A stretch of 64,000 nt of DNA from Candidatus Latescibacterota bacterium. GTDB taxonomy: Bacteria > Latescibacterota > UBA2968 > UBA8231. The first letter of the stretch is position 1, and every line of letters begins with the position of its first letter. The stretch spans positions 1,856,001-1,920,000 of the forward strand of contig CBDCXV010000010.1 of the NCBI GenBank assembly GCA_965223905.1. The letters run 5' to 3'. The notes beneath the pieces are model-generated. The model was not told the origin of the DNA and did no database searches. It saw only the letters and a program-made list of their open reading frames with translations. The translations under genes were made by a program, and so were the position numbers. Of the stretch, positions 8,173 to 59,964 are shown one piece after another.

Positions 8173-8265
8173 AAGGCCTTTGTTTTCGGTATACGTGAGA
8201 GTGTCCATCAGCTCGCGGCGACGACCCGGTCGCCTTCGCGCGACGAGTATTCCGGAACGGGGTCC

Positions 8266-9384
8266 TCAACTCGCCGGAGGGTTGGCCAGAACCTCTCGCA
8301 GGCACCTGGCCACCGTCTCCAGCTCCGATTCGTCGAGCTGCGCGACATCGACCCGCAGGCCGCGATCTGATCCGGAAAGCGACACCGCTGGGCTCCCGGC
8401 TTCGAGAAGCTCGGCGATGCGATCTCCTCCGAGCGCAAAGTCCGGCGCCAGCTCGATGTAGACGCGGGGCAGCACCGGCCGCGTACGCGGATCGGCCATC
8501 CGCTTCTCAGCCGCTACTCCGCCGATGCCCTCCAGCGCGGCAACGATGAAGTCGGAACGCCGTCCCAGCTCCGCCGTCTCCTCCTCCTCATCGATCGCCA
8601 CGAATCGCTCCAGGGCCACCACCAGCGCCGCGATGTCCTCCTTGCCCACTTTCATGCCCCGAGCAATGGAGCTCACCGGGTTGCCGTTGATCCTGCAGGC
8701 GGCGATCAGGTCGGCGTCACCCAGTATCAGTCCGGTCGCCTGCGGGCCGCGAATCCCCTTGCCGCCGCTGAAGACCACTAGGTTGGCTCCGTCGGCGAGC
8801 GGCTGGGTCAGGTTGCGCCGCGGCGGGAGCTCCGCGGCGGCGTCGACGATGAGCGGGACGCCGGCCGGACGCGTGACGGCGGCGATCTCGGCCACCGTGG
8901 GAGCCTCGTGCATCAGGAAGATCTGCACCGCCGCGGTCTTCTCGCCGATCGCGCCGGCCACGTCCTCGGCCGTCAACGAGGAGTTCGACCTGACCTCGAC
9001 GATGTGGGCACCGGTCGCCCGCATGCCCTGGGTGATGTAGTTGCCGGGACCGGAGGCGCGGGCGATGATCTCGTTCTTCCAGCCTTCCGTCATCGGCAGC
9101 TGGCGCACCCTGTCCCCGTCGGTGCCGGTCAGGCAGGCGGCGGTCGCCTGCACCATGCCGCCGGCCGCGCCCGAGCAGATACAGCACGCCTCGACGCCCA
9201 CCAGCCGGGCGATGTGGGCGCCCGCCCTGTCGAGCAGCTCCTCCAGCTCCACGAAGCAGCGTCCGGCCTCGGCCATCGCCTCGTATGCTTCGGGCGGCAT
9301 CCGCGAGCCCCCCATGGTAGTCACGAAGCCATAGCTGTTGATGTACTTGCGGACGCCGAGCCGGTCGTAGATATCCATCGCCAT
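8266..9384 (-). CDS. SelA-like PLP-dependent enzyme (DgaE/D-glucosaminate-6-phosphate ammonia-lyase-like)
   Basis: TTMGGS, SGAAGG, VDAAAE, FSGGKGIRGPQ and RGMKVGKE motifs. Confidence 0.8.
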   Translation of the reverse strand: MAMDIYDRLGVRKYINSYGFVTTMGGSRMPPEAYEAMAEAGRCFVELEELLDRAGAHIARLVGVEACCICSGAAGGMVQATAACLTGTDGDRVRQLPMTEGWKNEIIARASGPGNYITQGMRATGAHIVEVRSNSSLTAEDVAGAIGEKTAAVQIFLMHEAPTVAEIAAVTRPAGVPLIVDAAAELPPRRNLTQPLADGANLVVFSGGKGIRGPQATGLILGDADLIAACRINGNPVSSIARGMKVGKEDIAALVVALERFVAIDEEEETAELGRRSDFIVAALEGIGGVAAEKRMADPRTRPVLPRVYIELAPDFALGGDRIAELLEAGSPAVSLSGSDRGLRVDVAQLDESELETVARCLREVLANPPAS

Positions 9385-9409
9385 TCTCCCGGTGGATCTG
9401 GGTAGGTCG

Positions 9410-10495
9410 CTACTTGGCGTAGCGGATCCAGATCCTCACCGACTGCAGTACCAACGCCGGCGCAGTTTCGCGACGCACCGGGCGCACCAGCAGTTCGTTG
9501 GAGCCTCTACAAAGACAGCTGGCCTCAAGCATGACTCCTTCGTATAAACCCCATTTTGAGGATGTTCAGCGATTCAGCACATTAGAGCGCCACTATATAT
9601 TGGCCAACTAAGACAAAGCATACACTATATGTTGTATGACAAACGGGCATTCTGAGCGACGTAGAGTTTTTACGAGAGAATCAAGCATGAATTCGACCGG
9701 ATCCCAATCCAGGGGCTCCGCGCGGGTTCTCGACGGGTAGAGATTCCACGCGCCGTCGTAGTGCTCCTCCGTCCACGGCTGGTCCGGAGTCCGGCGCTGA
9801 TCCCACGATAGCTCGATCCCGTTCAGCTGGACTTCGACCTCGTCCTCCTCGTCCAGCTCCGCGAAGGCCAACCCCAGCACGTAGCTCTCCAGCGCGGCCT
9901 CTGCCTCCGCCGCCGCGACATCGTCGGCCAAGTCGAAGGTGAGCCGGGCACCCTCGCCAGCGCGGGTCTCCTCCAAGCGGACCGGCAGCTGCTCCAGCGG
10001 CATGCAGTAGCGGAAGGCGTGGCCTATCTGGGAATCGACCGACGGCGGGTTCCCGTGGTCGATCTGGTACTGCTTGCTCAGCCGGGCGAGCTTCGCCGGA
10101 TCGGCCAGCTCTCCTATGGTATGCGTCTTCCAATCCGCCGACATATTGTAGAAGTTGAAGAAGTACAGCCCGTCGGCGCCGGGCGCAACCCCTCGAAGCA
10201 ACCCAGGACCTGGCATCCCGTCCCCTCGGCTACGGCCGCGAACTCGGCCACCTTGGCTTCGAACGGCCGGAATCCCAGTCCGGTGACCACGATGTCGACC
10301 AACCTCTCCTTTATCCAGCGCTCCGCCTCCATGCCCAGGCGCTCGGAGTCGTAGAGAGTCGAGGCGACGCGCACCTCCAGCTCCAGGGCGCGCCCCTTGG
10401 CCTTGCCGATCTCGTCCACCCGCGCCCGCAGCTGTCGCACCATGTCGGTGAGCAGATGGCGGTTGGCGTAACCCTGCTCCGGCCGGAAGACGCCG
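9410..10495 (-). pseudogene. Glycoside-hydrolase-like (GHL10/TIM-barrel-like) gene, 5'-truncated, frameshifted and MITE-interrupted
   Basis: LLTDMVRQLR..WIKERLVD..GADGLYFFNF; the reading continues across the MITE as EFMLEASCLCRGSNELL..IRYAK*. Confidence 0.6.
9533..9682. mobile_element. 150-bp AT-rich MITE
   Basis: Imperfect TIRs GACTCCTTCGTATAAAC / GATTCTCTCGTAAAAAC; flanking duplication AAGCAT (TCAAGCATGA at 9525-9534 and 9681-9690); removal restores the host frame locally. Confidence 0.75.
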
Positions 10496-10500
10496 TCCTA

Positions 10501-10562
10501 CTCGACACCAGACACCCAAGCGATTTAGACTATCTATAATGTCGCTTATCGTTCCTAACCGT
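10501..10562 (+). mobile_element. Isolated IS91/ISCR oriIS end (family A)
   Basis: CTCGACACCA..CGATTTAGACTATCTATAATGTCGCTTATCGTTCCTAACC aligns with 34335-34396; sits at the truncation point of the GH gene. Confidence 0.65.
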
Positions 10563-10687
10563 CCGCGGTGACGAGGGTTCGCTTGAAGTTCATGGCTTTG
10601 CTGAAGATTCTCTGTGACCGATGTGTTTACCTGCTCTGAAGTCTAGCGCAGTCTCCGTGCCCGCACAATCGCAAGGATCCGACTCAA

Positions 10688-15189: not shown

Positions 15190-16012
15190 CAAGGTGGCCG
15201 CCCATACTGCCCTCCTGAATCAGCGTGTGTCCGGCGTCTTGCAGCGCGAACCACTCCGGATGCTGCTTGCCGAAGCGACTCGGCCAGTCGTTGAACGAGT
15301 GCATGCCGATCGGGCTGCCACCCGGCGCGCCCCAGCGCATGCGGCGCCACCAGGTCCAGATGTCGAGGTGGGTGAAATCCGCCTCGTCGTGATACGAGTT
15401 GAAGGCGAACCGCGTGTCGAAGGTCGGTGCGCCGCCCCAGCGTACTCCATCGACAGCCAGCGTCGCGTGTTCGGGCACAACCCTGCCCAGCTCGCCAGGC
15501 CAGTACCAACGCACACCGACGACGCGTTCGAGAAACTCATAGACCGCGTACAGTGTGCCGAAGGGGAGCAGAATGTTGGACGCTGGATCCGGGTCGAATT
15601 CCGAGTCGCCGCCGCTCACCACCAGGGCCTGACCGGCGCGCGACACGACCCAGTTGTCAGGCGCCAGATAGCGAGGTGCCAGCCCCAAGCGCTCCGTCAG
15701 CTCTGTCGTACCCACCTGGATCGTCGGTCCCGTGATCGGCTGGCCGTCCTCGGCCACGGGAAGCTCAGTGCCGGTACTGAGCTCGAGATGCTCGTTCAGC
15801 TCCTTCACTGCGTAGCGGACGGTGTGAGTGGCGTTCCTGCCGATCACGATGGTCGCGGCAGGCTCGCCGTCCCGGACCAGGACGAGGGTGCCGTTTGCCG
15901 GTTCCAGGCCGGCGACCCGGTTGGGCTGCTGTGGGGCCTCCTTCGAGAGCAAGGCGCCCGGACGGACGGCCAGGCAGCAGACGGCGAGTGCGATAAGGCG
16001 GAAGAATCGCAT
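15190..16012 (-). pseudogene. 5' part of a DUF4838-like secreted protein, truncated
   Basis: Signal peptide, GTLYAVYEFLER..GVRWYWPG and HPEWFAL; homology ends at GGHL and is followed by an unrelated fragment. Confidence 0.65.
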
Positions 16013-16024
16013 GTGTTGGCCTCC

Positions 16025-17098
16025 TTACTCTCTCAAGCTCAGCTCTGCCATGTAGATCGAACAGGGCGCGGCACCCGAGCGGCTGCCCTCGTGGCTGGAA
16101 TAGTACGAAAGCAGCCCTCTCGTGGGGCTGAGCTCGATGAACCCGGGATAGGAGTTGTCCCCGCCGCTGGGCAGTTCCGCGGCATCGACCAGACGCTCGC
16201 CATCCAACCAGTACAGGACCGTCCGGGGATCGTCCGGTGGGACGGCATCGGGCTCGGTGAAGAAGTTCAACGGATACCGGCCAGATACCGGCTCGAAGGG
16301 TTTGCGCCCCCCGACCAGGTACCGGGCACCCCATTTGACCAACAGCGGGCCGCCGATAAAGCAATCCAGGTCGGTTCGGACCCACTCGGAATACGGCGGT
16401 TTGGAGCGGCAGAGTTGTGAGCTATCCATAGTGCACCGGGCAACCGCCAACACGCTACCGTCCGGCTCGAACAGAAAAGCTGTCTCGTTTCCGTGCGTCG
16501 TTTGAAACAGGGCGTGCGTCCGCCAAATGAGCCCGTCGTCGCTTGCCAGCATAGCGGATTCGTGGAAGGATCGATCGTCGGCCTGCAGCTCGACGAACCC
16601 GCGCTTTCGCCGGCCACACAGGTACGCGGTCCCGCCGTGCGCCGCTGCTCGCCAGATGAAATGCCCGTAGGTTCCCTCCAGCGCGATCGGTTCGCTCCAC
16701 GAGCGGCCGTCGGCGCTCACAGCCGCATACCCAAGCTGCTGGTTCATCTCGGGGTGCCTCCAATTACCCTCTGGCGCCAAATCTCCGCAGTACGCCAAAT
16801 CTCCGCAGTACCAGGTGCCGGTGTAGACGAACAATTGGTCTTTGAAACTCAGGAAATGCGCATCGCGTACATCCCGATCAGGCACGCTGAACGCATGCAC
16901 CTGCTCCCACTCCACTCCATCGCCGCTGCAGAGGACGACGACGCGGGAGGTGGGGAACACCATGTGTCCGTCCGGACACGAGCGGAAGCACAGATACATC
17001 TTGCCGCCGAAACGGCACATGTCGGTAAATGCGTTGTGATTCCCGTCGTCGAAAATTTTGCGCACCGAATCGACGTGTATTTCTGGTAATTTGGTCAT
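16025..17098 (-). CDS. Exo-sialidase-like / BNR beta-propeller protein
   Basis: HNAFTD, RDVRD, SDDGLIW, GNET and LPSGGDNSYPG; paralog of 51351-52361. Confidence 0.7.
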   Translation of the reverse strand: MTKLPEIHVDSVRKIFDDGNHNAFTDMCRFGGKMYLCFRSCPDGHMVFPTSRVVVLCSGDGVEWEQVHAFSVPDRDVRDAHFLSFKDQLFVYTGTWYCGDLAYCGDLAPEGNWRHPEMNQQLGYAAVSADGRSWSEPIALEGTYGHFIWRAAAHGGTAYLCGRRKRGFVELQADDRSFHESAMLASDDGLIWRTHALFQTTHGNETAFLFEPDGSVLAVARCTMDSSQLCRSKPPYSEWVRTDLDCFIGGPLLVKWGARYLVGGRKPFEPVSGRYPLNFFTEPDAVPPDDPRTVLYWLDGERLVDAAELPSGGDNSYPGFIELSPTRGLLSYYSSHEGSRSGAAPCSIYMAELSLRE

Positions 17099-17821
17099 GC
17101 TCTGCCTTTCCGGTTGACCGGGATCTCCCATAGTGCCGCCGTCACCGCACGGCGTGCCGTTTCGCAGGCAGCGCCCGGGAATCGCAGTATGGATCTGACG
17201 GGCATTGAGAAAGAAAAGGAAGGTTCGATTGGTCTGGGCCGCAATTACCTGACTCGATCCCAACGCCAGATGTTGACGTAATCCTGTTCCGACGGACGAT
17301 CCTCCGGCGGCACCATAGTCAGCTGGTAGAGGTCTCCGGTTGAATCAGCGATGTAGAAATCGCCGGTTTCTGACCGGAGTCTCGCAGGCTCCGCCTACAT
17401 GTTACTGAGAATCCGCCCCCGCTCGCCAATCAGCGAGAAGATAACCCCCCATACCCCGTTCACGGTGACCTCCCCGAGGATGAGGCCGAGAAAAAAGGGC
17501 TTGAGGTTCTGATAGAGTCGGGCGCCGCCGTAGTGCATGATGGTAAGCTTGATGCCCCAGGCCACGAGGGAGGTGAACCAGATGTAGCCGGTGAGCCAGC
17601 CGACGCTGAGGGCGAATCCGAGGGGGTGGAAGGGCCACCAGGACCAGCGATACTGGGCCCACGAGAGAAATCCCGACCCGAGGCCGCCGATCGTCTTGAA
17701 GAGCCAGCCGCGCATGTTCGCCTCAGGCGTCCCGACGATCTCTCTGGCGATGCGCGGCCATCCGTGAGCGCCGGTCCAGCTGATGCCTTCTAGATTGATG
17801 GCGCCATAGGCGTAGCATAAG

Positions 17822-19491: not shown

Positions 19492-20148
19492 ATAAGTAGA
19501 TGGTCATGAACGCGGCGCCTATGAAGCTGAGGGAAAGGGCGATCATCATGCCCCAGAAGAGACGCGTTTTTGAGCCCCTTATGGACTCAGCGAGCTTGAT
19601 ACCGTGGGCGCATGCCACCATGGGTGAGGTCCGCGACTGTCCCTGCCACACGAAGGTGAAACCGAGGGCCACCAGGCCTTTCGCGCCCAGTGCCGAGGTG
19701 CCGAACCCGGAAATGACGAAGTAAGCGGGCACGTGGGGGCTTCTCGCCGTGGCGACCCCCGCCGTGGTCACCGCGCGCGCCACCCAGATGAAGAAGATGA
19801 GGCTGACGATGACGAGAATCGGCACGAAAACGGCAGGCACCCCCGAGCGCCACAACCAGAAGGAGATGAACAGGAGGCTGGCGATGAAACCGATGACGGC
19901 TGTGCGGTAGCGCAGTAGCTCCTCGCTGTCGTCGACGCCGGAGTCGGGATTCCAGACCTTCTGCAGCACATCCACCAAGTGTTGGCGGGCGCTCCAGAGG
20001 CCGAAGAGGATGAAAACGATGACGGCGCCGGTGGCCTGGTGGGTCAAGTCCGCAGACTGGTGGTCGTCGTAGCCGCTCTGCAACTCCGTGCTCCTGATAC
20101 CGAGGAAAGTGAACAGGCCATCTTCGAGCTTGCAGAACAGGTAAAAGA

Positions 20149-23826: not shown

Positions 23827-23856
23827 AGGAATGTCATCAAATTGCGAGGACAATCG

Positions 23857-42322: not shown

Positions 42323-42326
42323 CGAG

Positions 42327-48275: not shown

Positions 48276-48500
48276 CGCCTGTCTCTCACAGTCTGATTCT
48301 AGTGCCGTGTCCCGGAAGTATCAGCGCCGATCCATCCAGACTCGCGGCGTTGCTCTCACTTGCGATATGCTCCGCTACCCGTACCACAGTAACAAGATCC
48401 CGTAACCTGAGGAGAGCGCTTGCGTGAGGTAGAGGATTTCCAAATGCCAGCACCATCGGATTAGCGTTGAGAGAGGACGCCTGGAGGTCGGCGCCAGACC

Positions 48501-51116
48501 TCACCGCTGAGCCAGCGCCGTCAGAGCCGCCAACACCTGAATCCGGCCCTTGTCCGCCAGGGTGCGGTCTATCTTCTCGTTGAGCCAGTCGTGCCTCCCC
48601 GGGGACCTCGAATCCCCGATCTCGTGGCCCCCGGCCTGCAGGACGCTCAGCGGCAGGGTCGCCAACAAGCGACGCGCCTCCTCCACCTCCGGACCGATCA
48701 CCCCGGACGCCGAAGCTTCCTGAATCGCCCGATCGAGCATCGCCAAGTACTCGTAGTCCTGCACACCTTCCCGCGCCGCCTCGAGGTGTTTTCCGGCCGT
48801 CACCGAGGTCTCGTCGAGGAAGATGGGGGAGTAGGTATTGTTGAGGGAGAGGTATTCGTTCCACGATGAAGCGCCGCCCGTGTCCGTCAGCGACCACGTG
48901 TAGAAGCCATCGGCCCCGAAGCGCCAGCACGACCACGCGTTGAGCCGGCCCGAATACGGATCGGAATCCCGACCGCTACCCCCGTAGAATTCCAGCGCGA
49001 TGCCCTGGTCCCGCTTCGTCAGGAAGTAGTCGCGATACTCCGGGTCGCCCCTCAGGAAAGCCCCGTAATTGGGGGACAGTACGTGAACCAAATCGATCAT
49101 CTCCTGATCGGCCTGGCTCATGTCGCCGTGGGTCACGTCCTCCCAGATGCGGACCCCTGTGGCGGCCTGGCGGATCGGCTTCGACCATTCTAGTATGAGC
49201 TCGTCCTGGAATGGCTCGTCGGGCTCGTCCACCAGCAGCAGGGCCAACTGTTCGGGCTTGAACCCCTTCGACACCATGTACTCCGCCCAGAAGGTCACCC
49301 AGTCCCTGACCGCCGTCTCGAACTCCGGTGTGCCCATCTGCCATGACTGGAACTTGGGTTCCGCTTCGGCGAAGACCATGTACTGGGCCGCGTCCGGCCA
49401 CAACTCGATCCAGGCGTCGAAGATGTCGGTGGAGGGTGGCGCGATCATCGCTCCCCGTTCGTCGTGGGTGCCGCGCGGCAAGGCCAGGCTGAGGCCCCAG
49501 GGCGAGTCGACCCGGTGCTCGCGCAGGTGCTCGACGATCGACCTCCGGTTCTGCTCGGTGATGTAGGGAAAATGACCAATACGATCGGTGTAGTCCCAGC
49601 CGCCCATGTGCAGAGTCTGCTGCTCGGGAAAGTCCAGGGGATACAGGTGCAGGCGCAACGGAAACCGCACGCCACCGGGGGAGGGAACTACGACCTCGCC
49701 CTCGTACACACCCGGGGCCACGTCCACCGGGTGGAAGGTCATCCACACCTGCCGGGTCATTCCAGACGGCACGGTTACCGTGTACAGACCGTTCTCGGGA
49801 GCCACCTCTGGCAGCGCCGCTGCGACAGGCATCCCGTGCCGGGTGTCCGTCCAGAGCACCTCGTGAACGGTGACGTATTCGGGATTGTCGCCGCCCGGTA
49901 GCCCACTCAGGCGGAACGAGACCTCCTTCGGTTCGTCGGCGCTGTTGCTGACGTTGAAGGCGGCGGCGCGGTGTTCCTGCCGCATCAGGTGCACTTCGAC
50001 GGCCAGCTCGGCCTCGGCGGTTAGTACCGCCGCCGTGTCAGGCGCGCCGACGAGGGGGAGTGGATCCCACAGGTTTGAGTGCCAGAACGTGAGCGGTCTA
50101 AGACCGGCGGCGCGCCAGAGCAAGGCCTGGGTGCGCATCACCCGTTCGTGCCACGGATTCAACGGCAGTATGGCCTGGAAGTCATCGCCGGACTCGGTGG
50201 CCGGCCCCAGATTCGCTTCCACGTGTGCCAGCTCGCCGAGCACGTCAATTCGTACCTGAACCGGGACACCCTCTTCTTGGGCCGTCTGCCGTAAGGCCTC
50301 GATGTCCTGCGCGAGGCGCGCCCGAATTCCCTTCTGGATGGCCAGCCGCTTCGCGTACGCCTTCGGATTAGGGACGGCTGGTCCCGTCGGCGGCTCATCC
50401 AACCACGCGGGTTCGCCACCGTAGACCTCGATCTCGTCGACGAACGTGTACGGCTCGTTCCACACCATCAGACTGACGTAGCGTCCGTGCGTTCGAAGAC
50501 GGTCCGTCCAGTAGATGTAGGTCCCGTACCTGGCGGCGCGCTCCTCAATGGCATCGCGAAGCACCTGGGCACGCACTTCGGGGGTGAACTTCGGCCCGAA
50601 GCGGTCCTTGCGGAACGCGTAGTGATGGTGTACTTGAGCGTTGCTGAAACCCTCGTCGATCCAAATGTCAGGGTTCGCCCTCGTCGGAACGAGCGGTCCG
50701 TGCTGTTGTTCGCTCAATCGCACCAGGTCGCCGACCTCGTGGAACTGCTCGTCTTCATCGGCCACGAGGATGCGGATCGTCAGGGGCCACTCCACGTCCG
50801 CGAACCCTCCCGCCGTACTGAACGAGACGCCCCGGATCGGCTGTACCGCACCCAGGTCCAGCGTGAAGATCGAAGGGGCCTTTTCCTGCCAGCCCACCGT
50901 CGACTTGTTGACCCAGAAGTAACCCTCCGTGTAATCCCCGTCCGTCAGCTGCTCGAGATCACCGGGGTCGGAGCAGAGCCCGTAGTTGGGACCCGGGTCT
51001 AACGTGTAGCTCGCCCCGAGCGCGATGTTACCGCTTGGGCGGTCTGCGGACTCCGCGGCCTGTGCCCACGCCAGTGCAACTATCAGCGATGTCGCTGCCG
51101 CCAGCATCGGTCTCAT
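48501..51116 (-). CDS. Secreted DUF4091/GH123-like protein (paralog B)
   Basis: Same motifs as 45753-48275. Confidence 0.6.
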   Translation of the reverse strand: MRPMLAAATSLIVALAWAQAAESADRPSGNIALGASYTLDPGPNYGLCSDPGDLEQLTDGDYTEGYFWVNKSTVGWQEKAPSIFTLDLGAVQPIRGVSFSTAGGFADVEWPLTIRILVADEDEQFHEVGDLVRLSEQQHGPLVPTRANPDIWIDEGFSNAQVHHHYAFRKDRFGPKFTPEVRAQVLRDAIEERAARYGTYIYWTDRLRTHGRYVSLMVWNEPYTFVDEIEVYGGEPAWLDEPPTGPAVPNPKAYAKRLAIQKGIRARLAQDIEALRQTAQEEGVPVQVRIDVLGELAHVEANLGPATESGDDFQAILPLNPWHERVMRTQALLWRAAGLRPLTFWHSNLWDPLPLVGAPDTAAVLTAEAELAVEVHLMRQEHRAAAFNVSNSADEPKEVSFRLSGLPGGDNPEYVTVHEVLWTDTRHGMPVAAALPEVAPENGLYTVTVPSGMTRQVWMTFHPVDVAPGVYEGEVVVPSPGGVRFPLRLHLYPLDFPEQQTLHMGGWDYTDRIGHFPYITEQNRRSIVEHLREHRVDSPWGLSLALPRGTHDERGAMIAPPSTDIFDAWIELWPDAAQYMVFAEAEPKFQSWQMGTPEFETAVRDWVTFWAEYMVSKGFKPEQLALLLVDEPDEPFQDELILEWSKPIRQAATGVRIWEDVTHGDMSQADQEMIDLVHVLSPNYGAFLRGDPEYRDYFLTKRDQGIALEFYGGSGRDSDPYSGRLNAWSCWRFGADGFYTWSLTDTGGASSWNEYLSLNNTYSPIFLDETSVTAGKHLEAAREGVQDYEYLAMLDRAIQEASASGVIGPEVEEARRLLATLPLSVLQAGGHEIGDSRSPGRHDWLNEKIDRTLADKGRIQVLAALTALAQR

Positions 51117-51350
51117 GGCTTGTCCTTGCTATCTGATGAGCGCTTCTTCCTCGTACTCTCAAACTGCAAAAAGGCGGGCTGCAACGCGAACGATGGGTGG
51201 CCGCGTCATGCGCCCTCTCACTGGTTCTGGCTCGCTTTTGACGATGGCGATCGGTATCATCCTGCAGATCGACACCGGCCCCAATCATCAAAAACAGAGG
51301 TCGCCGGGCGAGAACCGATCATGACCTCTCGCGAACAAGGAGAAGACCGA

Positions 51351-52361
51351 ATGTCTGAACCTGCTGAAATCCGGGTGACGAACGTCCGCCGCGTCTTTCA
51401 CAACGGCGAGCACAATGCGTTCACGAGCCTGATACGTTTCCGTGACCGGTACTACCTGTCGTTTCGCAGCTGCCCCGATGGGCATTATGCCTATCCGACG
51501 TCGTCGCTCATCATTCTGGCCAGCGACGACGCCGAAACATGGGAACAGGTGCACAGCTTCAGCGTTCCGAAACGGGACGTGCGGGACGGGCACTTCCTGG
51601 TTTTCGAGGACAAGCTTTTCGTCTACACCGGCACGTGGTACTGCGGCGATTCCTCGCCCGACGCGGACCGGGGGCGCGGACACGCCTGCGAGATGAACCA
51701 GCAGCTCGGATATGGAGTTGTGACGGAGGACGGGCAGACGTGGAGCGACCCGATCATGCTGGAGGGGACCTACGGCCATTTCATCTGGCATGCCACCCAG
51801 CACGACGGCGGCGCCTATATGTGCGGGCGGCGCAAGCGTGAATTCGTCGCCTTGGAGGCGGACGATCGGTCGCTGCATGAATCGGCCATGCTGGAGAGCG
51901 ACGACGGGCTCGTCTGGCGGACGCGGGCCCTGTTTCAGACGACCCACGGCAACGAGACGTCGTTTCTGTTCGAGCCGGACAGCAGCGTGTTGGCGGTCTG
52001 CCGGTCCAGAATGTCCAGCTCACAGCTGTGCCGCTCGCAACCGCCGTACAGGGATTGGACCCGAACGGACATCAACCGCTTCATCGGTGGTCCGATGCTG
52101 GTGAAGTGGGGCGAGCGTTACCTGGTCGGCGGGCGCAAGGGCGATTACGATGAGGCACCGGAGACGGTGCTGTCCTGGCTGATTGACGAGCAACTGCACG
52201 ATGTTGCGGTGTTACCGAGCGCCGGCGACAACTCCTATCCCGGCTTCGTCGAGCTCAGCCCGACGCGCGGCGTGATCTCATGGTATTCGAGCCACGAGCA
52301 GGACGCCGCTGGCAAAGCCATGACCGCGATCTACCTGGCGGAACTGGAGATCTCCGAGTGA
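51351..52361 (+). CDS. Exo-sialidase-like / BNR protein
   Basis: HNAFT, SDDGLVW and LPSAGDNSYPG; AAGGAG RBS. Confidence 0.7.
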   Translation: MSEPAEIRVTNVRRVFHNGEHNAFTSLIRFRDRYYLSFRSCPDGHYAYPTSSLIILASDDAETWEQVHSFSVPKRDVRDGHFLVFEDKLFVYTGTWYCGDSSPDADRGRGHACEMNQQLGYGVVTEDGQTWSDPIMLEGTYGHFIWHATQHDGGAYMCGRRKREFVALEADDRSLHESAMLESDDGLVWRTRALFQTTHGNETSFLFEPDSSVLAVCRSRMSSSQLCRSQPPYRDWTRTDINRFIGGPMLVKWGERYLVGGRKGDYDEAPETVLSWLIDEQLHDVAVLPSAGDNSYPGFVELSPTRGVISWYSSHEQDAAGKAMTAIYLAELEISE

Positions 52362-52440
52362 GGTCGCACTCTAACGGAGACTCAGGCCAGTCGGCAGCCA
52401 TCGCGGTGACGCGTCCACACACCAGTCGCGGTCGACGGAA

Positions 52441-53250
52441 TCAGCCGTTGAGGACCTTCATCGTCCTCTCGACAGGCTCGCGGAACGCTTGAGGCAACGA
52501 CGCGAGGTACTGGGGATCGGCGTACTCCGGCTCCTGAGCCCAGGCGTTGATCACCGCATCCTTCGCGGAGTCGACATTGCCGTACACGATAAAGAGGGAT
52601 CGACGTTTCACGCCCCTCGGTGTGAGTCCACGGTGGATGCCGCGCGAGTCGAAGGGCACGGCGCTGCCGGCACGGACCTGCAACTGAATTGCCCCGGTGA
52701 ACATCTTGTCACCGGCCGTAGGTCCTTCCCCGAAACGAGCTTCCTCCTCCTCGGTGTTGGCGCGGTTGTGGGAGCCGGGAACGAACCAGAAGCTCGCATC
52801 GTCCTCGAGGGCCAGTAGAATCTGCGTCGCCGGGAGGGTCTCCATCTCCCTTATCTGTCGCTCAAAGGCCGAATCCTTGCCCCAGGCGAAATAGGAATCC
52901 CGATGCCAGGGACCGCGGTAGTCGTACTCCGGGTTTATGGCAAAAGCCGCAATGCCGTGCATGGTCGCATCATCGCCGAACAACGCCTGGACAACATCCA
53001 TGATGGCCGGCGCCGCCAGGGCTTCCATGACCGGATAGCGCGCGATCTCGGGGTGGTGTGGATCCTGGAATCGGTGTTTGCTGAGGAAGCCGGTCTCTTC
53101 ATCGCGTTCGGCCCGTCCCACGTTCATCGCAGCTTCGATGATCTCTTCGTAACTGTCCTGCACCGCTGCCAGACTGTCAGGCGCTACGGCATCCTCCAGA
53201 ACGACGTAGCCGTCGCGGTTGTATTGATCGATTGCCTGTTGTGTGTTCAC
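52441..53250 (-). CDS. PhyH-like Fe(II)/2OG dioxygenase
   Basis: YNRDGY, WHRD, VPGSH and IHRG motifs. Confidence 0.8.
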   Translation of the reverse strand: MNTQQAIDQYNRDGYVVLEDAVAPDSLAAVQDSYEEIIEAAMNVGRAERDEETGFLSKHRFQDPHHPEIARYPVMEALAAPAIMDVVQALFGDDATMHGIAAFAINPEYDYRGPWHRDSYFAWGKDSAFERQIREMETLPATQILLALEDDASFWFVPGSHNRANTEEEEARFGEGPTAGDKMFTGAIQLQVRAGSAVPFDSRGIHRGLTPRGVKRRSLFIVYGNVDSAKDAVINAWAQEPEYADPQYLASLPQAFREPVERTMKVLNG

Positions 53251-53464
53251 TCTTCGAGCTCCGGCCGGATAGATGATCTCCAGTTCGAGTCACGTTCTCT
53301 GGATAGCCTACGGTACGCCCCTCCCGATGGGCAAGACCACAGCAGGCGACCGAATCGTCGATGATAGTCATTGACCCGGCCTGCCGAACGCCTACGATAC
53401 ACATCGAACGGCACGCCGTGCGGTGGCGGCGGCCCTACGAGAACCCCGGGAGAAGGAGAGGACC

Positions 53465-54991
53465 ATGGCAGACGCAACTCAGGTATGGCCTGTAGGGATA
53501 CGCAAACAGCTGCTGTTTGACCGTCGCTTCGTCGACTCGTCCGCGGGCCTGCAGTTCACGGTCAATCCCCCCCTTCGCACACCCATCAATCTGCCATCGC
53601 TACGCGGTCTGCACGCCCGTCACTTCCTGACCGTGCTCGACGTCGACGATCGTTTCTGGATGTACTACCACCTGAGGCCTGACGAGACGCAAGAACGTGA
53701 TTGCGTGAATGGCATGTTCTGCCTGGCCTACTCGGACGACGGCATCGACTGGGAACTGGCGCCTGTGGACCAGTTCGAGGTGGAGGGATTGTCTCGGAAT
53801 AACGTGGTTATGCCCGGGGTGTTGGGAACGCCGTTCCTCGACCCCCAGGAGACCAGCGGTTGCAGATTCTGGTTTGCGGGAACAATGGGCGAGCGCACCG
53901 AGCCGCCGTTCTGGGACGAGGCCCGGGATACCTACTTCGGCGGTTACGACGCCCCCGACGGGCGCAGAGTCCACGCCGGGCTGTACCTGCTCCAATCCGA
54001 GGATGGCATTTCCTGGCGCCGGCAGCGCAGCGGAGTCATCGTGCCCTTTCGCTGCGACTCGCAGAACCAGGTCCTCTACGATGCCGGCGCCGGCGCCTAC
54101 GTCGCCTATGTGCGCGGCGCGTCCCCCGTGCCAGGAAGAAGGCGGACAGTTGCTCGTTTGACCTCCCCCGCGCTTACGGAGTTACCGTTTGATTTCGTTG
54201 AGGACACCACGTTACCCCGGAGCCCGGTCGGGCTGTACGACCGGTTGCCGCCGCAATGCGCCCCGTTCGTCATGGAGGGTGACGACCGTGATCCGCCGGC
54301 CACGGACGTCTACACGCCCTGCGTCAACCCGTACGCGTGGGCGGACGACGCTGTTTTTGCGTTCCCTACCGTGTTCCGCCATTACGAGGGGCAGGACAGC
54401 CATGGGCGGGACCAACGGGGGGAAAGCGCTAGCGACGGCCCGCTGGACGTGCAGCTTGCCGTGAGTCGCGATGGCGTCACATTCGAGCGGTTCCGTACGC
54501 CCTACGTTGGCCTTGGTCTGATGGAAGAGCCGCAGCTCGGGGGATCCGTGTACATGGGCGTAGGGCTGGTAAGGCGGGGGAACTTCATCTACCAGTACTA
54601 CGCCGAGGGAGCGCGCACCCATGTCCGTGAGGTCGACGTGAGCCTCTGGCAGGCCAAACAGCGCCTGGACGGTTTCGTCTCGGTGGATGCGGGGCCGGAT
54701 GGCGGGTGGTTCGTGACGCCGCCGATCGAGTTCGCAGGGAGCCGTCTGCTGCTGAACATCGACTGCGGCGCCATGGGCGAAGCGTGGGTCGGGCTCCAGG
54801 ACGAAACCGGCAAGCCGTTGCCCGGCTACACGTTCGAGGACGCCGTGTCGATCGACCGCAACGGTGTCGCGCAGGAGGTCTGGTGGCGGAGCGGCCCCGA
54901 TGTCGGCTCGCTGAGTGGTCGGCCTGTCCGGTTGAAGATTAAAATGCGTTCGGCGAAGCTCTACGCGTTCCAGTTCGTGGAGGCCAGCTGA
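53465..54991 (+). CDS. GH32/GH43-like beta-propeller protein, close paralog of 40160-41719
   Basis: High similarity including about 90 bp of upstream DNA. Confidence 0.7.
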   Translation: MADATQVWPVGIRKQLLFDRRFVDSSAGLQFTVNPPLRTPINLPSLRGLHARHFLTVLDVDDRFWMYYHLRPDETQERDCVNGMFCLAYSDDGIDWELAPVDQFEVEGLSRNNVVMPGVLGTPFLDPQETSGCRFWFAGTMGERTEPPFWDEARDTYFGGYDAPDGRRVHAGLYLLQSEDGISWRRQRSGVIVPFRCDSQNQVLYDAGAGAYVAYVRGASPVPGRRRTVARLTSPALTELPFDFVEDTTLPRSPVGLYDRLPPQCAPFVMEGDDRDPPATDVYTPCVNPYAWADDAVFAFPTVFRHYEGQDSHGRDQRGESASDGPLDVQLAVSRDGVTFERFRTPYVGLGLMEEPQLGGSVYMGVGLVRRGNFIYQYYAEGARTHVREVDVSLWQAKQRLDGFVSVDAGPDGGWFVTPPIEFAGSRLLLNIDCGAMGEAWVGLQDETGKPLPGYTFEDAVSIDRNGVAQEVWWRSGPDVGSLSGRPVRLKIKMRSAKLYAFQFVEAS

Positions 54992-55091
54992 TGCCCTTCC
55001 GTACCTGCGCCGGTCACAAGGCGCCCCCTGGCCTTCTCGGGAGAATGAGAATCTCGAGAAGGAGGGATTCATCAGATATGAGGGACAGGCG

Positions 55092-57770
55092 ATGAAGTGG
55101 GCATGGACAGCAGTAGCGTTGTTGATGGCGGGACAGGCGTGGGCGCAGGACTCGGAGCTTTCACCGACGGCACACCGGACGGTTCCGACTGAACGTCCGA
55201 GCGAGAACATCGCCCTCGGGGCGAGCTACACGATAGAGCCGAGTCCGAACTACAGGCTTTGCAGCGACCCCGGCGATTTCGAGCAACTGACCGATGGGGT
55301 CTACACGGAGGGCTATTTCTGGGCGCAGCTGTCGACCGTGGGCTACCAGGAAAGGACGCCCTCCATGGTGACGATTGACCTGGGCGAGGTGAAGCCGATA
55401 CGGGGGGTGTCCTACCACACCGCTGGGGGGTTTGCCGACGTGCTCTGGCCGCTGACGATCCGCATCCTCGTGGCGGGTGAAAATGAGGAGTTTCATGAGA
55501 TTGGCGACCTGGTCCAATTGAGCGAGGCACAGCACGGACCGCTCGCGCCGGTGAGGGCGACCGATGCCATGTGGGCGGTGGACACCGTCGGTTTCAGACA
55601 GGACCAGATCCACCATCACTACAACCTCAACCGGGATCGCTTCCCGGAGAAAATGACTCCCGAGGTTCGTGAGCAGGTCATCAAGGATGCCTACAAAACT
55701 CGAGCCGAGCAGTATGGGACGTACCGCTACTGGACAGACCGGCTGCGGACGCACGGGCGCTACGTCAGCCTGGTCGTGTGGAACGAGCCGTACACCTTCG
55801 TGGACGAGATCGAGGTCTACGCAGGAGAGCCGGGGTGGGTGGATGAGCCGCTGCCGGGACCGGCCTTCCCGGACGTTGAGACGTATGCGGTCAGGCTCGC
55901 CATCGAGAAAGGAATTCGGACCCGCCTGACGCAGGACATCGAGGCCTTGCGGCAGACGGCCGAAGACGGCATCCCGGCGCAGACACAGAGCGCTGTGATG
56001 GGCGAGCTGGCGACGGTGGAGGCGAATATGCGGCAGGCCAGCAGGTCCTTCGGCGATGACTTCGAGGCCGTGCTGCCGCTGAACTCGTGGCACGAACGGG
56101 TCCTGCAAACTCAAGCCCGACTCTGGCGCGCCAGGGGATTGGAGCCGCTCACGTTCTGGCGTTCAAATCTATGGGATCCCCTACCCCTGATCGGCACACC
56201 GGAAACGGCGGCCGAGCTGGCCGTCGAGGTGCACCTGATGCGGAATGAATACCGAGCGGCCGCCTTCAATGTCAGCAACAGTAGTGACGAGCCGATGCAG
56301 GTCGCCTTCCGCTTGAGCGGGCTTCCCGGGGGCGACAATCCGGAGTACGTGACCGTTCACGAGGTGATCTGGACGGACACGCGCAGCGGCGTGCCGGTGG
56401 CGGCGGCCCTGCCCGAGGTTGCCGCCGAGAGCGGTCTGTATGCGGTGACCGTGCCCGCTGGCATGACGCGACAGGTGTGGCTGACCTTCCATCCGGTCGA
56501 CGTAGAACCCGGCAACTACGAAGGTGAGGTGGTCGTAGAATTGACGCCCGGGGGCAAGCGGTTTCCCTTGCGCATGCACCTGTATCCGCTCGACTTCCCC
56601 AAGCAGCAGTCGCTTCACATGGGCGGCTGGGACTATACGGACGCGGTCGGTTGGCACCCCCTCGTGACGGAGCAGAACCGGTCGCTCATCATTCAGCACC
56701 TGCGCGAACGGTTCGTGGACTCGCCGTGGGGCTCGCCTCGGCTGCTGGATCCGAGCTACCCGGATGTGCAGGGCACACATGATGCGCAGGGGGTGATGAC
56801 GGCGCCCCCCAACACGACCAGGTTCGATGCATGGCTCGAGTTGTGGCCGGGTGCAGCCCAGTACCTCGTGTTCTGGCAAGTGGGCGATCGTTTCACTTCG
56901 ATGGGCGACAAGTACAGATGGGCCATGGGCACACCGGAGTTCGAGACGGCGGTCAGGGACTGGGTGACCTTCTGGGCCGAGTACATGGTGTCGAAAGGGT
57001 TGCAGCCCGAACAGCTGGCCCTGTTGCTGGTGGACGAGCCCGACGAGCCCTTCCAGGACGAGCTCATCCTGGCCTGGGCGAAGCCGATCCGCGAAGCGGA
57101 CACGGGAGTCCGCATCTGGGAGGATGTGACCCACGACGACATGGACGAGGCGAACCAGGAGATGATCGACGCGTGCCACGTGTTGTGCCCGAACTACCAG
57201 GCCTTCGTGAGCAAGGGCGAGGACTATCGCAAATACTACCTGACGAAGCGGGATCAGGGGATCGCGCTGGAATTCTACTCGTCATGGCCGAGTCGAATTT
57301 TCGATCCGTACGCGGGCCGGCTGAATGCTTGGTCATGCTGGCGCTACGGGGCCGATGCCTTCTACATGTGGTCGCTGACGGACACGGGCCACGCGTCATC
57401 GTGGAACGAATACCTGACTATCAAGAATGCCTACGCCCCCATCTTCATCGACGAGGAGTCGGTGACGGCCGGCAAACACCTCGAGGCAGCGCGGGAAGGG
57501 GTGGAGGACTACGAGTATTTCGCAATGCTGGACCGGGCGATCCAGGAAGCGTCTGCTCAGGGGATGACGGGTCCGGAGGTGGAGGAGGCGCGTCGGTTGC
57601 TGGAGAGCCTGCCGACCAGTGTCCTGGAGGCCGGGGGCCACGTGGATGGGCTCTACGACGACCAGCCGCTGAACGGCTTTCACTGGCTGAACGAGAAGGT
57701 GGACCGCACGTTGGCGGACGAGGCGCGGATTCAGGTGCTGGCGGCGTTGACGGCGCTGGCTGAGCTCTGA
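55092..57770 (+). CDS. Secreted DUF4091/GH123-like protein (paralog C, mosaic)
   Basis: Same family as 45753 and 48501. Confidence 0.6.
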   Translation: MKWAWTAVALLMAGQAWAQDSELSPTAHRTVPTERPSENIALGASYTIEPSPNYRLCSDPGDFEQLTDGVYTEGYFWAQLSTVGYQERTPSMVTIDLGEVKPIRGVSYHTAGGFADVLWPLTIRILVAGENEEFHEIGDLVQLSEAQHGPLAPVRATDAMWAVDTVGFRQDQIHHHYNLNRDRFPEKMTPEVREQVIKDAYKTRAEQYGTYRYWTDRLRTHGRYVSLVVWNEPYTFVDEIEVYAGEPGWVDEPLPGPAFPDVETYAVRLAIEKGIRTRLTQDIEALRQTAEDGIPAQTQSAVMGELATVEANMRQASRSFGDDFEAVLPLNSWHERVLQTQARLWRARGLEPLTFWRSNLWDPLPLIGTPETAAELAVEVHLMRNEYRAAAFNVSNSSDEPMQVAFRLSGLPGGDNPEYVTVHEVIWTDTRSGVPVAAALPEVAAESGLYAVTVPAGMTRQVWLTFHPVDVEPGNYEGEVVVELTPGGKRFPLRMHLYPLDFPKQQSLHMGGWDYTDAVGWHPLVTEQNRSLIIQHLRERFVDSPWGSPRLLDPSYPDVQGTHDAQGVMTAPPNTTRFDAWLELWPGAAQYLVFWQVGDRFTSMGDKYRWAMGTPEFETAVRDWVTFWAEYMVSKGLQPEQLALLLVDEPDEPFQDELILAWAKPIREADTGVRIWEDVTHDDMDEANQEMIDACHVLCPNYQAFVSKGEDYRKYYLTKRDQGIALEFYSSWPSRIFDPYAGRLNAWSCWRYGADAFYMWSLTDTGHASSWNEYLTIKNAYAPIFIDEESVTAGKHLEAAREGVEDYEYFAMLDRAIQEASAQGMTGPEVEEARRLLESLPTSVLEAGGHVDGLYDDQPLNGFHWLNEKVDRTLADEARIQVLAALTALAEL

Positions 57771-57939
57771 GGTCAGGCGGTTCGCCAGGGTGCGCGGTGC
57801 CCGACTGGACAAGACCGCTGATTTGGTCGCCCGGGGCGGGCCACCGATGGTTACAAACCTACCGTCAATTGTCGCTCCGTGACCCGCCAACCGCATCACT
57901 CGACGTGGTTCGACCGCTGAGGCTCGTGTTCGAGTGGGC

Positions 57940-57979
57940 TTGACAGTGTAACCCTGCTTCGTATATCCTAAGTATATAC
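57940..57979 (+). promoter_or_regulatory. mazEF promoter and operator
   Basis: TTGACA-18nt-TATCCT; palindrome GTATAT..ATATAC. Confidence 0.6.
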
Positions 57980-57996
57980 ATTCAAGGAGAGCCGAC

Positions 57997-58242
57997 ATGC
58001 CCAAAGTGCAGAAGTGGGGGAACAGTCAGGGACTGAGATTCCCCAAGGATGTTTTGGAACAAGCACGGATCGACGTTGGTGACGAAGTCGAAATCTCGGT
58101 CGAGAATCGTGCCATCGTTGTCCGTGCCAGGGGCCGAGCGGGAAGCAAGCACAACCTCGAGAAGCTTGTCGCCAAAATGCCAAAGCAGTACAAGCCGGTC
58201 GAAGAAGACTGGGGCGATGCGGTGGGAAAGGAAACCTGGTAG
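57997..58242 (+). CDS. mazE: AbrB/MazE antitoxin
   Basis: KVQKWGNSQGLRFPK..DWGDAVGKETW. Confidence 0.9.
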   Translation: MPKVQKWGNSQGLRFPKDVLEQARIDVGDEVEISVENRAIVVRARGRAGSKHNLEKLVAKMPKQYKPVEEDWGDAVGKETW

Positions 58243-58581
58243 GTGGCTGCGTACAAGCCCAAGCAAGGAGACTTTGTCGGACTGAGCTTCGACCCCCAAT
58301 CTGGCAATGAACAGAAGGGCCGCAGACCGGCCCTCGTGGTCAGCCGCGACCTCTTCAATCGACGCACGGGTCTGGCCATCGTCTGCCCCATCACCAAGAC
58401 CGACCGGCGAATGCCGTTTCATGTCGCCATTCCAGATGATCTACCGCTGACAGGCTTTGTGATGGTTGAGCAGGTCAAGTCGGTAGACTACTCCAGCCGG
58501 CGTGCCCACCGAATTGGACATGCGACACCCGACGTGATGGATGAGGTTCTGGCCATACTCGACTCCTGTATCTACGAATGA
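58243..58581 (+). CDS. mazF: PemK/MazF toxin
   Basis: FDPQSGNEQKGRRPALVVS..CPIT..QVKSVD. Confidence 0.9.
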   Translation: MAAYKPKQGDFVGLSFDPQSGNEQKGRRPALVVSRDLFNRRTGLAIVCPITKTDRRMPFHVAIPDDLPLTGFVMVEQVKSVDYSSRRAHRIGHATPDVMDEVLAILDSCIYE

Positions 58582-58768
58582 AAAGCGCCGCGAAGCCGAT
58601 CGCGACTCGTGGTGATGTGCGGCGAACTGGCTCATCTGCTCATCCGTCAGAATGCGTGATGGTGCACCCTGTTTCATGTAATGCTCCATTTACGCCTGGC
58701 GCGCGCTGATTTGGAGATCCCATGCCCGCCGGTAGTACTTCAGCGGGCCTGAGCTCTGAGGTCAGGCG

Positions 58769-59012
58769 TCCGGATCAGGATTTCATCGCCAGATACGCCG
58801 GTCAGTCTGAAGCGCGTCCCCTCGTCGCACCACCGCATTCCGTCCGGCGAAATCTGGACTCGCGCCTCCGCCGTTTCGACCGGCCCGCCCGACTCCAGTA
58901 CGCGGACGTAGAAGATGGCCTCCGATGCCCACGCCGCCTCGTAGGGCTCGGTCTCGAAGGCCCCGGCCCAGACGACATCGCGCTCCAACACCGTTGTGTG
59001 GCTCTGCCTCAT
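58769..59012 (-). pseudogene. Hypothetical protein, 3'-truncated
   Basis: TEPYEAAWASEAIF..QISPDGMRWCDEG, ending at the 20-bp repeat. Confidence 0.5.
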
Positions 59013-59062
59013 GTCACACCGAAACCTCGCTCAGAAGTCCCCCGACAGCGTCACCGAATCCG

Positions 59063-59461
59063 CGTACAAGGGCCCTTTTTTCCTGACGGAGGTATGTGGC
59101 AGGTCGGGCTTGAAAACGACAGTGGGTAGGATTGGTTACACTGTATCGCGTAATCGGCCGGTCTGTTGCTGATTTCGTTTCAAGGCCCTGCTCGTCGCGA
59201 GTGTGGTGTTCGGCGTACGGTTCGACCGAGGATCTCCTGCTCTCAGCTGCGGTCTCGGCAGGTACAGTCGTCCGATAATGCCTCTTGGTCTTGCAGGTGA
59301 CGGGCGTGGATCCAGGCGTGTGCCCTGCGTGCGGCCAAGGACGTATGCACACTGTGCAGATTCTCAGCCCATCGGAACAGCGCGCACCACCTGAATGGCG
59401 TCAATCGGCATGAGCACGCAGAATTCAATGGAACATCTCCACGCGACGGACAGACCGTGCC
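59063..59461 (-). mobile_element. IS91/ISCR mini-element copy B4 (long form, last ~10 nt of oriIS missing)
   Basis: Reverse match to B1; carries an in-frame IS91 tail [27 protein letters not shown] on the + strand. Confidence 0.8.
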
Positions 59462-59479
59462 TTCTTGCCTCTACACGGA

Positions 59480-59676
59480 GCGGTGTCGCTTTCAAAGACG
59501 AATCCCACGGCGAGATCACCTCGTGGTCATGGGACTTCGGCGACGAAACGACTTCGAACGAACAGCACCCGATACATCAGTACAGCGAAGCAGGAGAGTT
59601 TGTGGTGACCTTGCATGTCGAAGGTCCGAAGGGAAAGGCGCGTCGCGTCAAGGTGTATGAAGTGATGGTGAAGTGA
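59480..59676 (+). pseudogene. 3' fragment with PKD domain
   Basis: [25 protein letters not shown]. Confidence 0.75.
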
Positions 59677-59875
59677 TGCCGGCGAACCGGGAGTGCGTGC
59701 TGACGACGTCCAGACCACCTCGTTGCCACTACGGCAGCCTCGAGCAGACGATTCACGCCATCCGCGCCCACCGGCCGTTCGACCTAAATGCCGAGCGCTG
59801 GCGGGAGGCGCACCCAGGGGCCGACTTCGAGACGTGGCGCCGCCAGGCCCATGCATGTCTGCACGAGGGCCTCGG
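59676..59875 (+). pseudogene. 5' fragment of a probable alpha/beta hydrolase
   Basis: DFETWRRQAHACL resembles esterase N-termini; runs into an oriIS end. Confidence 0.4.
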
Positions 59876-59879
59876 CCCC

Positions 59880-59964
59880 TCAGACCAGCCTCAAATTTCT
59901 GACTCGACAGCATCTCCCAGCCGACATACACTACCCATAACGGCCGTCTATAATTCCTATACGT
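59880..59964 (+). mobile_element. Isolated IS91/ISCR oriIS end (family A)
   Basis: CTCGACAGCA..ACTACCCATAACGGCCGTCTATAATTCCTATACGT. Confidence 0.7.

Follow-up and report, generated by a model that had tools for sequence, protein, structure and literature searches.

Ends of IS91/ISCR-type elements at gene-fragment seams in a Candidatus Latescibacterota genome

The stretch of DNA analysed here, referred to as the window, comprises 64,000 nt of a Candidatus Latescibacterota genome (GenBank assembly GCA_965223905.1, contig CBDCXV010000010.1, positions 1,856,001 to 1,920,000) and carries copies of two families of repeats, A and B, many of them next to cut genes. Five units lie head to tail at 31614-39891, all on the plus strand. 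Judged from sequence, the repeats are oriIS (3′) ends of IS91/ISCR-type insertion sequences (IS), mostly belonging to broken or miniature copies, because they share a published terminus, follow transposase tails in two cases and recur with the same terminus at the loci of relatives. The genome holding the window (G000; completeness 93.6%, contamination 5.1%) looks metagenome-derived, and was compared mainly with G002, of the same genus, and G016, a relative assigned to another genus by the genome tool.

Family B ends had been proposed, in a sequence-only reading of the window, at 33712, 37735 and 39891; these numbers proved to be end positions, with the exact family B 22-mer occupying 33691-33712, 37714-37735 and 39870-39891 and having no match in 100 shuffles. 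A partial copy of the 22-mer, with 3 mismatches, is present at 39849-39870. A clipped family B end on the minus strand at 59063 was likewise recovered, as part of a copy (59063-59461) that is 93-99% identical to the others and lacks its last 10 nt. All five proposed family A ends were found by nhmmer with a hidden Markov model built from 13 ends (11 outside the window and 2 inside). The matches at 34328-34394, 36494-36560 and 59895-59962 have E values of about 1e-14 each, that at 10496-10557 has a degenerate end (E 1.6e-9), and that at 44936-44969 on the minus strand covers the distal half only (E 1.3e-3). For the terminal octamer TCCTATAC, the window has 6 occurrences where 0.47 would be expected; over the whole genome the bare octamer shows no enrichment (55 seen, ~98 expected from base composition), and the signal therefore resides in the extended ends. 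A further family B candidate, a 15/22 match at 8175-8196, is at chance level: matches of at least 15/22 arise 3.25 times per shuffled window (20 shuffles), and the alignment upstream of it shows no tail homology.

The terminal octamer is the same as that of ISCR1, whose oriIS ends ...CTTCCTATACCC (PMC13023784), and of ISCR27, whose oriIS ends ...CTTCCTATACC 236 bp past the stop codon (PMC8894482), as given in the available portions of both sources. In the window, the end at 34394 lies ~210 nt past the stop of a Y2_Tnp C-terminal piece (33772-34182). Among 80 transposase-relative loci, 30 carry CCTATAC on the transposase strand, mostly ~250 nt past the transposase match and often as AAAAGGGCGTTTGAACTTCCTATAC, to which the terminus of window family B (AAAAGGGCCCTTGTACGTCCTATAC) is close. 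Transposase remains in the window are C-terminal tails only, and two family A ends had been said to follow such tails. This was borne out for the tail at 33772-34182 (Y2_Tnp, tblastn) and for the minus-strand end at 44931, where tnpA residues 459-500 match at 45149-45268 (E 1.3e-5), but not for the end at 59903, which gave no match. An intact IS91-family transposase gene, sought since the sequence-only reading, is present in the genome at C11:524224-525666. Its 480 codons match Zn_Tnp_IS91 (PF14319, E 7.9e-21) and Y2_Tnp (PF04986, E 5.2e-29), and the HLH triplet (H-hydrophobic-H pattern) is readable in the translation. The product is 41-42% identical to IS91/ISVsa3-family transposases on plasmids; the nearest transposases, at 83-88% identity, are encoded on chromosomes of Candidatus Latescibacterota metagenome-assembled genomes, and the closest named relatives of these elements are of the ISVsa3/ISCR2 type. 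A plasmid ISVsa3-type copy had no intact end for comparison. Target duplication was looked for at the two complete copies of the mini-element B2, described below (window 31614-33712 and contig C1 of G016), the flanks of which contain no repeated sequence; a third copy, clipped at its oriIS end, was left out of this comparison. The two ends of B2 are unlike one another, so that terminal inverted repeats are also lacking. Contigs of the public runs examined contained no circular junctions.

At the left edge of the stack, an HpcH-type aldolase gene without its first 89 codons meets B2 (31614-33712), a 427-nt mini-element without transposase, into which an IS1380-like element has inserted at 31783-33452. 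A1 (33713-34396) follows the B2 end directly and is a 5′-truncated family A copy consisting of transposase residues ~342-480 (33772-34182; 66% to the intact copy by tblastn) and a 213-nt non-coding tail ending in the octamer. Segment S1 (34397-36349; 58.6% GC) contains a C-terminal piece of an rve-type (IS481/IS3-like) transposase (rve_3, E 4.5e-14) and then a 608-codon open reading frame (ORF) that has a Sel1 repeat and reaches its stop codon only within the A tail that follows. This second family A tail (36350-36562; 213 nt) starts at the transposase stop-codon position and is 100% identical to 34184-34396. Segment S2 (36563-37360) is a fragment of an Avs2 defence gene (profile 39-301 of 1504; PADLOC PDLC02164, E 2.2e-78; NCBIfam Avs2), cut on one side by the A end and on the other by the first B1 tail (37361-37735; 375 nt), which has a 331-nt core in common with B2 and 44 nt of its own at the left. 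Segment S3 (37736-39495; 56% GC) holds a GDSL lipase gene and a metallophosphatase gene (Pfam), followed by a 99-codon ORF that runs into the second B1 tail (39496-39891). The second B1 tail is 99.7% identical to the first over 375 nt and has its last 21-27 nt duplicated. The last 46 codons of a GH32-like glycoside hydrolase (GH) gene (39892-40037, plus strand) are joined directly to this B end; an intact GH32-like gene in G016 represents the uninterrupted site of the seam at 39892. The cargo segments S1-S3 are foreign gene pieces of lower GC, similar to each other at 55-59%. For the 99-codon ORF (39198-39494), a PhyH identity was tried and rejected, Pfam giving no match at E up to 1 and BLASTP no significant match to either the window PhyH protein or a metagenome PhyH neighbour. 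That it is a PhyH N-terminus is a lead only, drawn from a language model and from a conserved metallophosphatase-PhyH neighbourhood on a metagenome contig.

Four ends lie outside the stack. A family A remnant of ~65 nt on the plus strand (10496-10562) has a degenerate terminus (TTCCTAAC). Its inner edge adjoins a gene on the minus strand that is cut at the point corresponding to residue 229 in a 574-aa homologue (blastx), an intact DUF6785 gene begins 126 nt downstream (Pfam), and a matching end with a similar flank is present in G016. A family A-like remnant on the minus strand (44931-45357) has its oriIS end at 44931 and retains about the last 42 transposase codons (45149-45268). The minus-strand B2 copy at 59063-59461 occupies the same place in G016, and the DNA flanking its oriIS is a truncated copy of sequence that continues in two G016 paralogues. 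Lastly, a family A end of ~90 nt on the plus strand (59872-59964) has no transposase tail and is separated by 33 nt from the multihaem cytochrome ORF downstream; a 5′-cut PKD fragment is found at 59428-59670. Tandem duplications occur inside two of the window's ends, involving the last 21-27 nt of the second B1 tail (39849-39891) and a 21-nt unit in the reverse A-like tail (44940-44990). Conservation within family A ends is highest in two blocks, TCGACA and TAAACT, 18 nt apart (34336-34365, 36502-36531), which form a predicted outward sigma-70-like promoter pattern ~30 nt inside the terminus, and intact ORFs begin 13-126 nt past three ends (at 10688, 37749 and 59995). The count of promoter-like sites in the region, 5, is not above that in shuffles (3.1 +/- 1.9).

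The left end of B2 (GGTCTGTCCGTCGCG...) and its right end are the same in three contexts, namely at window 31614, at window 59461 (in reverse) and on contig C1 of G016, and the element is 98-99% identical between the two genera. Its right end resembles the ISCR-type oriIS of relatives. No transposase was found upstream of any B end in the loci examined. A search for an empty B2 site was negative: the flanks of the copy on G016:C1 have no match in G000, and the G016 paralogues of the flank at 58796-59062 run on into unrelated sequence. As had been proposed, most ends are non-autonomous, consisting of 5′-truncated copies, short tails and the transposase-less B2. A non-exhaustive literature search returned no description of a miniature or non-autonomous IS91 derivative, the papers listed all dealing with eukaryotic elements, and none of truncated or tandem ISCR.

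The sequence-only reading held that almost every end abuts a truncated gene. This is so, at one or both edges, for 7 of the 9 real ends, but not for those at 44931 and 59962. Truncations were also called automatically, for genes with paralogues in the genome at ≥40% identity; after six boundaries had been dropped (two DDE-type IS insertions and one frameshift), 16 points were kept. Four of these lie ≤60 nt from an IS91-derived edge, against 0.46 expected (P about 0.0007), in keeping with the proposed enrichment of ends at truncations. The ends do not, however, explain the whole mosaic, since no IS91 end lies near the other 12 points (including 15191/15198, 23850, 42353 and 61566). The seam at 15191/15198, for example, joins two cut genes where a 2628-nt duplication (100% identical) has its edge, and two DDE-type insertion sequences also cut genes in the window. 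The other halves of the cut genes were not found in the region from 20 kb before the window start to 140 kb past its end, and the seams are therefore not simple insertions.

Comparison with G016 bears on both the stack and its surroundings. G016 is syntenic with window 45358-58639 (13.3 kb) at 99.15% identity, and later blocks are 94-99% identical. The 14.2-kb array at 31150-45357 is absent from G016, where 48 unrelated bases lie instead, beside the G016 DUF6785 gene; this 48-nt filler gave no informative match. The right edge of the difference (45357/45358) coincides with the inner edge of the reverse A-like remnant. For S1, S2 and S3, no match was obtained in any of G016, G001 and G002. The sequence-only reading had transport and glycan genes stacked by the ends. 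The blocks concerned (DUF6785/DUF6784, GH-like genes of 496-556 aa, genes of 840-892 aa and BNR-like genes) contain no ends, and the synteny of 45358-58639 speaks against their delivery by this route. At the right of the stack, the G016 copy of the seam between B end and GH fragment has a shorter, 255-nt tail and is joined to other DNA; the GH fragment is 98.6% identical to the G016 gene and about 91% to the copy that G000 itself possesses. The 1.7-kb unit that follows (40038-41741) contains an ORF of 522-556 aa without family match, 25% identical to a GH32-like protein, and is present in many copies in G000 and G016 at 79-96% identity. In G000 it follows the intact GH gene, but in G016 the GH gene is not followed by it; the unit is usually paired with 840-892-aa proteins that also have no family match. 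Elsewhere in the window, 9526-9685 is a 160-nt repeat with seven other copies in the genome (91-98% identity), and a stretch 100% identical to 9681-9859 is joined directly to a 255-nt B tail in G016.

Genome-wide, 42 end-like sites were obtained at E up to 10 with a small profile, and 40 distinct sites remained after merging. They form at least four sub-families and most lie on contig C10. There are 28 Y2_Tnp matches. The 41 transposase fragments are strongly asymmetric, 27 being 3′-only and 1 being 5′-only, with 6 of full-length span and 7 internal. Copies are co-oriented within each cluster, and their outer (oriIS) termini are exact and their inner edges variable. The assembly has a single uninterrupted transposase gene, and the end of its element (C11:525800-525920) is without the last 14 nt of oriIS; the copy on C1 (C1:929255-929345) has a complete oriIS and a frame change near codon 456. 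A strand bias linked to replication was considered and rejected, GC skew in 100-kb and 300-kb windows around the 41 fragments having no consistent tie to their orientation. Entry of new units at resident ends, which the sequence-only reading implied, was not seen as a trend: IS91-derived sequence lies within 200 nt downstream of 2/40 ends and in 9/120 control windows, so that resident ends are not shown to be preferred entry sites. Four further co-oriented arrays (G000:C10:343-386 kb, 546-561 kb, 1464-1479 kb and 1601-1647 kb) consist of 5′-truncated IS91-type copies of sub-families C and D, with cut genes at their inner edges. Those at 354-377 kb and 1603-1609 kb share stretches of 1.7-4.2 kb at 99.9-100% identity.

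Exchange anchored in a tail is evident at one such locus. The segments C10:371064-372417 and C10:374212-375565 have 0 differences in 1354 nt and span an oriIS end, its tail and a GNAT fragment, extending into a glyoxalase gene of which one site has the complete form (profile 5-121 of 121) and the other a cut form (17-121). Within the pair, a 251-codon ORF in which the GNAT N-terminal part is fused in frame to the last ~105 codons of the transposase is also 100% identical (C10:374437-375192 and 371289-372044). The pair is not a clean new insertion, because G002 already holds the junction, and from its sequence replacement or gene conversion through tail homology would explain it as well. The exchange thus indicates that tails also act as portable homology for recombination.

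In the mechanism we propose, transposition would start with a nick at the oriIS terminus and copying would proceed leftwards. Early termination would keep the exact oriIS end and leave the inner edge arbitrary, and where terIS had been lost, read-through would carry upstream DNA along. Being alike, the tails would also provide portable homology on which recombination and gene conversion could act. Recurrent events on the same strand would give the co-oriented stack at 31614-39891 together with scattered single ends, and such events would leave cut genes at the seams. Exact outer termini, variable inner edges and a 27:1 excess of 3′-only fragments are what oriIS-started, early-stopped copying would give. 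In the available text of the sources, failure to terminate moves adjacent DNA in IS91-type one-ended transposition (PMC13181058), read-through past a missing terIS moves upstream DNA (PMC13181058, PMC5737581), and for Helitrons truncation and read-through have both been shown experimentally (PMC4778049). The 100% identical A pair (213 nt) and the 99.7% identical B1 pair (375 nt) suggest that some of the tails are recent. We infer that rolling-circle events anchored at oriIS, together with tail-to-tail recombination, best explain the end-marked seams. The window would then probably represent IS91/ISCR rolling-circle debris, its stack built by oriIS-anchored events and tail recombination as the by-product of selfish elements and not by a dedicated capture device, with the glycan and transport blocks not delivered by it.

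A number of observations weigh against this account. No copy in the assembly combines an intact gene with a complete end, and any recent movement must therefore have occurred in trans. No second copy of any window unit (S1, S2 or S3 plus tail) was found in the genomes compared, and capture of these pieces is therefore reasoned and not seen directly. The block at 39616-41741, which comprises a B tail together with the GH fragment and the 556-aa gene, recurs in G016 at 98.8% identity in a different setting; its oriIS lies inside the block, and movement of DNA leftward of oriIS fails to explain the G016 copy. At the 1354-nt pair, the junction of oriIS and flank at the site taken as the copy is already present in G002 at 95% identity. 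The similar GC of S1-S3 also fits a single eroded resident island. Among the tetranucleotides next to oriIS, GTTC appears only at 59962 and at its G016 counterpart; the next bases are bound to the sub-family (GT after B, TC after A, TT after D), those after B ends reading GTTG, GTTT, GTCG, GTCT, GTTC or GAGC, and the empty GH site in G016 suggests that the GT belongs to the B end itself. DNA folds of six end segments revealed no significant subterminal hairpin (z -0.7 to +1.4).

The sequence-only reading saw in these units an active, integron-like platform, with ends driven in trans adding cargo again and again at one fixed site and thereby assembling transport and glycan genes. Five co-oriented units head to tail, a truncated copy starting directly after the B2 end, an array present in G000 and absent from a close relative, and conserved, predicted outward promoter-like hexamers in family A are all as such a platform would have them, and ISCR1 does have outward promoters in the available part of PMC6218425. 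Yet the borders of the glycan and transport blocks have no ends and the blocks are syntenic in G016, three quarters of the automatic truncation points are away from any end, IS91 sequence is no more frequent downstream of ends than in controls, the cargo is mostly gene fragments and not working genes, and the promoter-like sites do not exceed shuffles. Moreover, the 40 ORFs scanned against Pfam include no integrase family and no recombination or att-like site was seen, the repeats being transposon ends; a platform of this kind is improbable. More improbable still is that the seams are chimeric joins made at repeats during assembly. The metagenome-derived look and contamination of G000 invite this suspicion, as does the order of units through repeats of 213-375 nt, which is beyond the reach of short unitigs. 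Against it, unitigs from three public runs with three organism labels contain S1, S2 and S3 free of differences, extending by as much as 30 nt into the repeats on either side of each segment, and bridge 31087-31672 and 41712-45945, thus covering the seams at 31614 and 45357/45358. Of the array's sampled words, 93-96% are present in these runs. The junction of B end and GH fragment is found independently in G016, as is the B2 copy at 59063-59461. A seawater metagenome run also contains 31087-31672 (1 difference) and 34554-36345 (11 differences); the lack of cover for parts of the array in that run was not counted as evidence. A joint labelled 'skips 10411' has a shorter side of just 21 letters and falls within the multi-copy IS. 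At the k-mer level the seams are therefore supported as genuine, as the sequence-only reading had taken them to be.

A closer competitor is erosion in place, in which a resident foreign island (rve transposase, Sel1 gene, Avs2, GDSL, metallophosphatase and PhyH-like gene) was struck by several IS91-type copies and trimmed by deletions from the oriIS terminus (intramolecular transposition) and by tail recombination, nothing having been brought in. It accounts readily for the uniformly low GC of S1-S3, for units found once only, for the missing complementary halves of cut genes, which deletions predict, and for the lack of a genome-wide trend of new IS91 sequence at resident ends, and tail-to-tail exchange is evident elsewhere in the genome. 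However, adjacent deletions by IS91-family elements are undocumented in the literature consulted, and at least five separate deletions would be required, each keeping the terminus exactly. Both B1 tails carry the identical 44-nt non-core left part beside different cut genes, which fits a moving 375-nt unit, and the GH fragment is nearer to the G016 gene than to that of G000. We consider erosion unlikely as the general explanation, although for the individual cargo pieces in this window neither it nor the capture claimed by the sequence-only reading is demonstrable. Beyond the preferred account of oriIS-anchored debris, a wider role for the tails is conceivable but somewhat doubtful: as portable docking sites they might allow a transposase acting in trans, along with tail recombination, repeatedly to move origin-anchored pieces with upstream gene fragments and so build co-oriented stacks. 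This would amount to a bacterial, Helitron-like capture of fragments, including the 427-nt element exchanged between genera, and to a general, still active route of gene shuffling in environmental bacteria.

Set beside known systems, the array in the window is gene shuffling and debris of mobile DNA of a known sort, found here in a marine host that is unusual, and not a new integron-like system. It shares with ISCR elements (ISCR2/ISVsa3, ISCR1, ISCR27) a Y2/HUH transposase with Zn_Tnp_IS91, at the identity to plasmid IS91/ISVsa3 proteins given above, an oriIS slightly over 200 nt past the stop codon that ends in the same octamer, 5′-truncated copies keeping oriIS, variable DNA beside oriIS and direct end repeats bracketing cargo. 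It differs in residing on the chromosome of a marine bacterium of uncultured type, in carrying gene fragments and ordinary genes instead of resistance genes, in having at least four sub-families of ends side by side in a single genome, and in that one of these, B, lacks a known transposase and occurs as a mini-element of 427 nt. With IS91, IS801 and IS1294, as described in the source text available, it has in common distinct oriIS and terIS ends, a lack of target duplication (here at the B2 flanks) and the movement of adjacent DNA upon termination failure; in contrast to them, GTTC or CTTG beside oriIS is not general here and predicted hairpins are not significant. Helitrons, according to the accessible part of PMC4778049, are also rolling-circle HUH elements with one fixed end, in which truncation and read-through make new ends and capture gene fragments and which occur end to end, but their Rep/helicase fusion is absent here, the present host is bacterial and the fixed end of Helitrons is the 5′ end; the likeness would be one of working and not of membership. 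Integron cassette arrays have co-oriented units with a repeated element between them, whereas here there is no intI, attI or attC, the units are mostly gene fragments and the repeats are transposon ends.

What stands out is the scale of the asymmetry between 3′-only and 5′-only fragments, the 427-nt mini-element common to two genera and the use of tails as recombination handles. Evidence for transduction of adjacent DNA by IS91-like elements has been called 'circumstantial' in the available text of PMC4778049. With ~40 ends, the 27:1 excess, identical tail pairs and the cross-genus mini-element, this genome provides many natural examples, and thus usable material for studying IS truncation in rolling-circle elements, read-through and gene reshuffling outside the setting of antibiotic resistance. 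For annotation, the lesson is that the ends account for a good share of the pseudogene seams here, including the broken Avs2; they leave the origin of the surrounding polysaccharide-utilisation gene families unexplained.

Other features of the window concern seams and genes away from the stack. Scans for tRNA and Rfam families found nothing in the window. A chimeric ORF on the minus strand (41928-42893) combines ECF sigma factor region 4 with a C-terminal DUF6784, and its seam at ~42353 has no IS91 end. The same is true of the seams of three 5′ fragments, of 46-115 codons, of a ~356-aa PKD protein family located upstream of other genes (6837-6974, 23506-23850 and 61336-61566). The third of these fragments supplies the first codons of an 855-aa FG-GAP/ASPIC ORF; the 256 nt at 61314-61569 are missing in the G016 orthologue and are contiguous with the end of a cytochrome gene at another G016 locus. 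The duplication that begins near 15191/15198 (15194-17821) is 100% identical to C10:2002779-2005406, the identity stopping exactly at an IS1380-like insertion (17822-19491). An uninterrupted paralogous version of the DUF6785/DUF6784 gene is found at C10:2002779-2008552, whereas in the window (15194-23832) the gene is interrupted twice, by the IS1380-like element and by a copy of ISL3 (20149-21612) that has about 20 near-identical copies in the genome.

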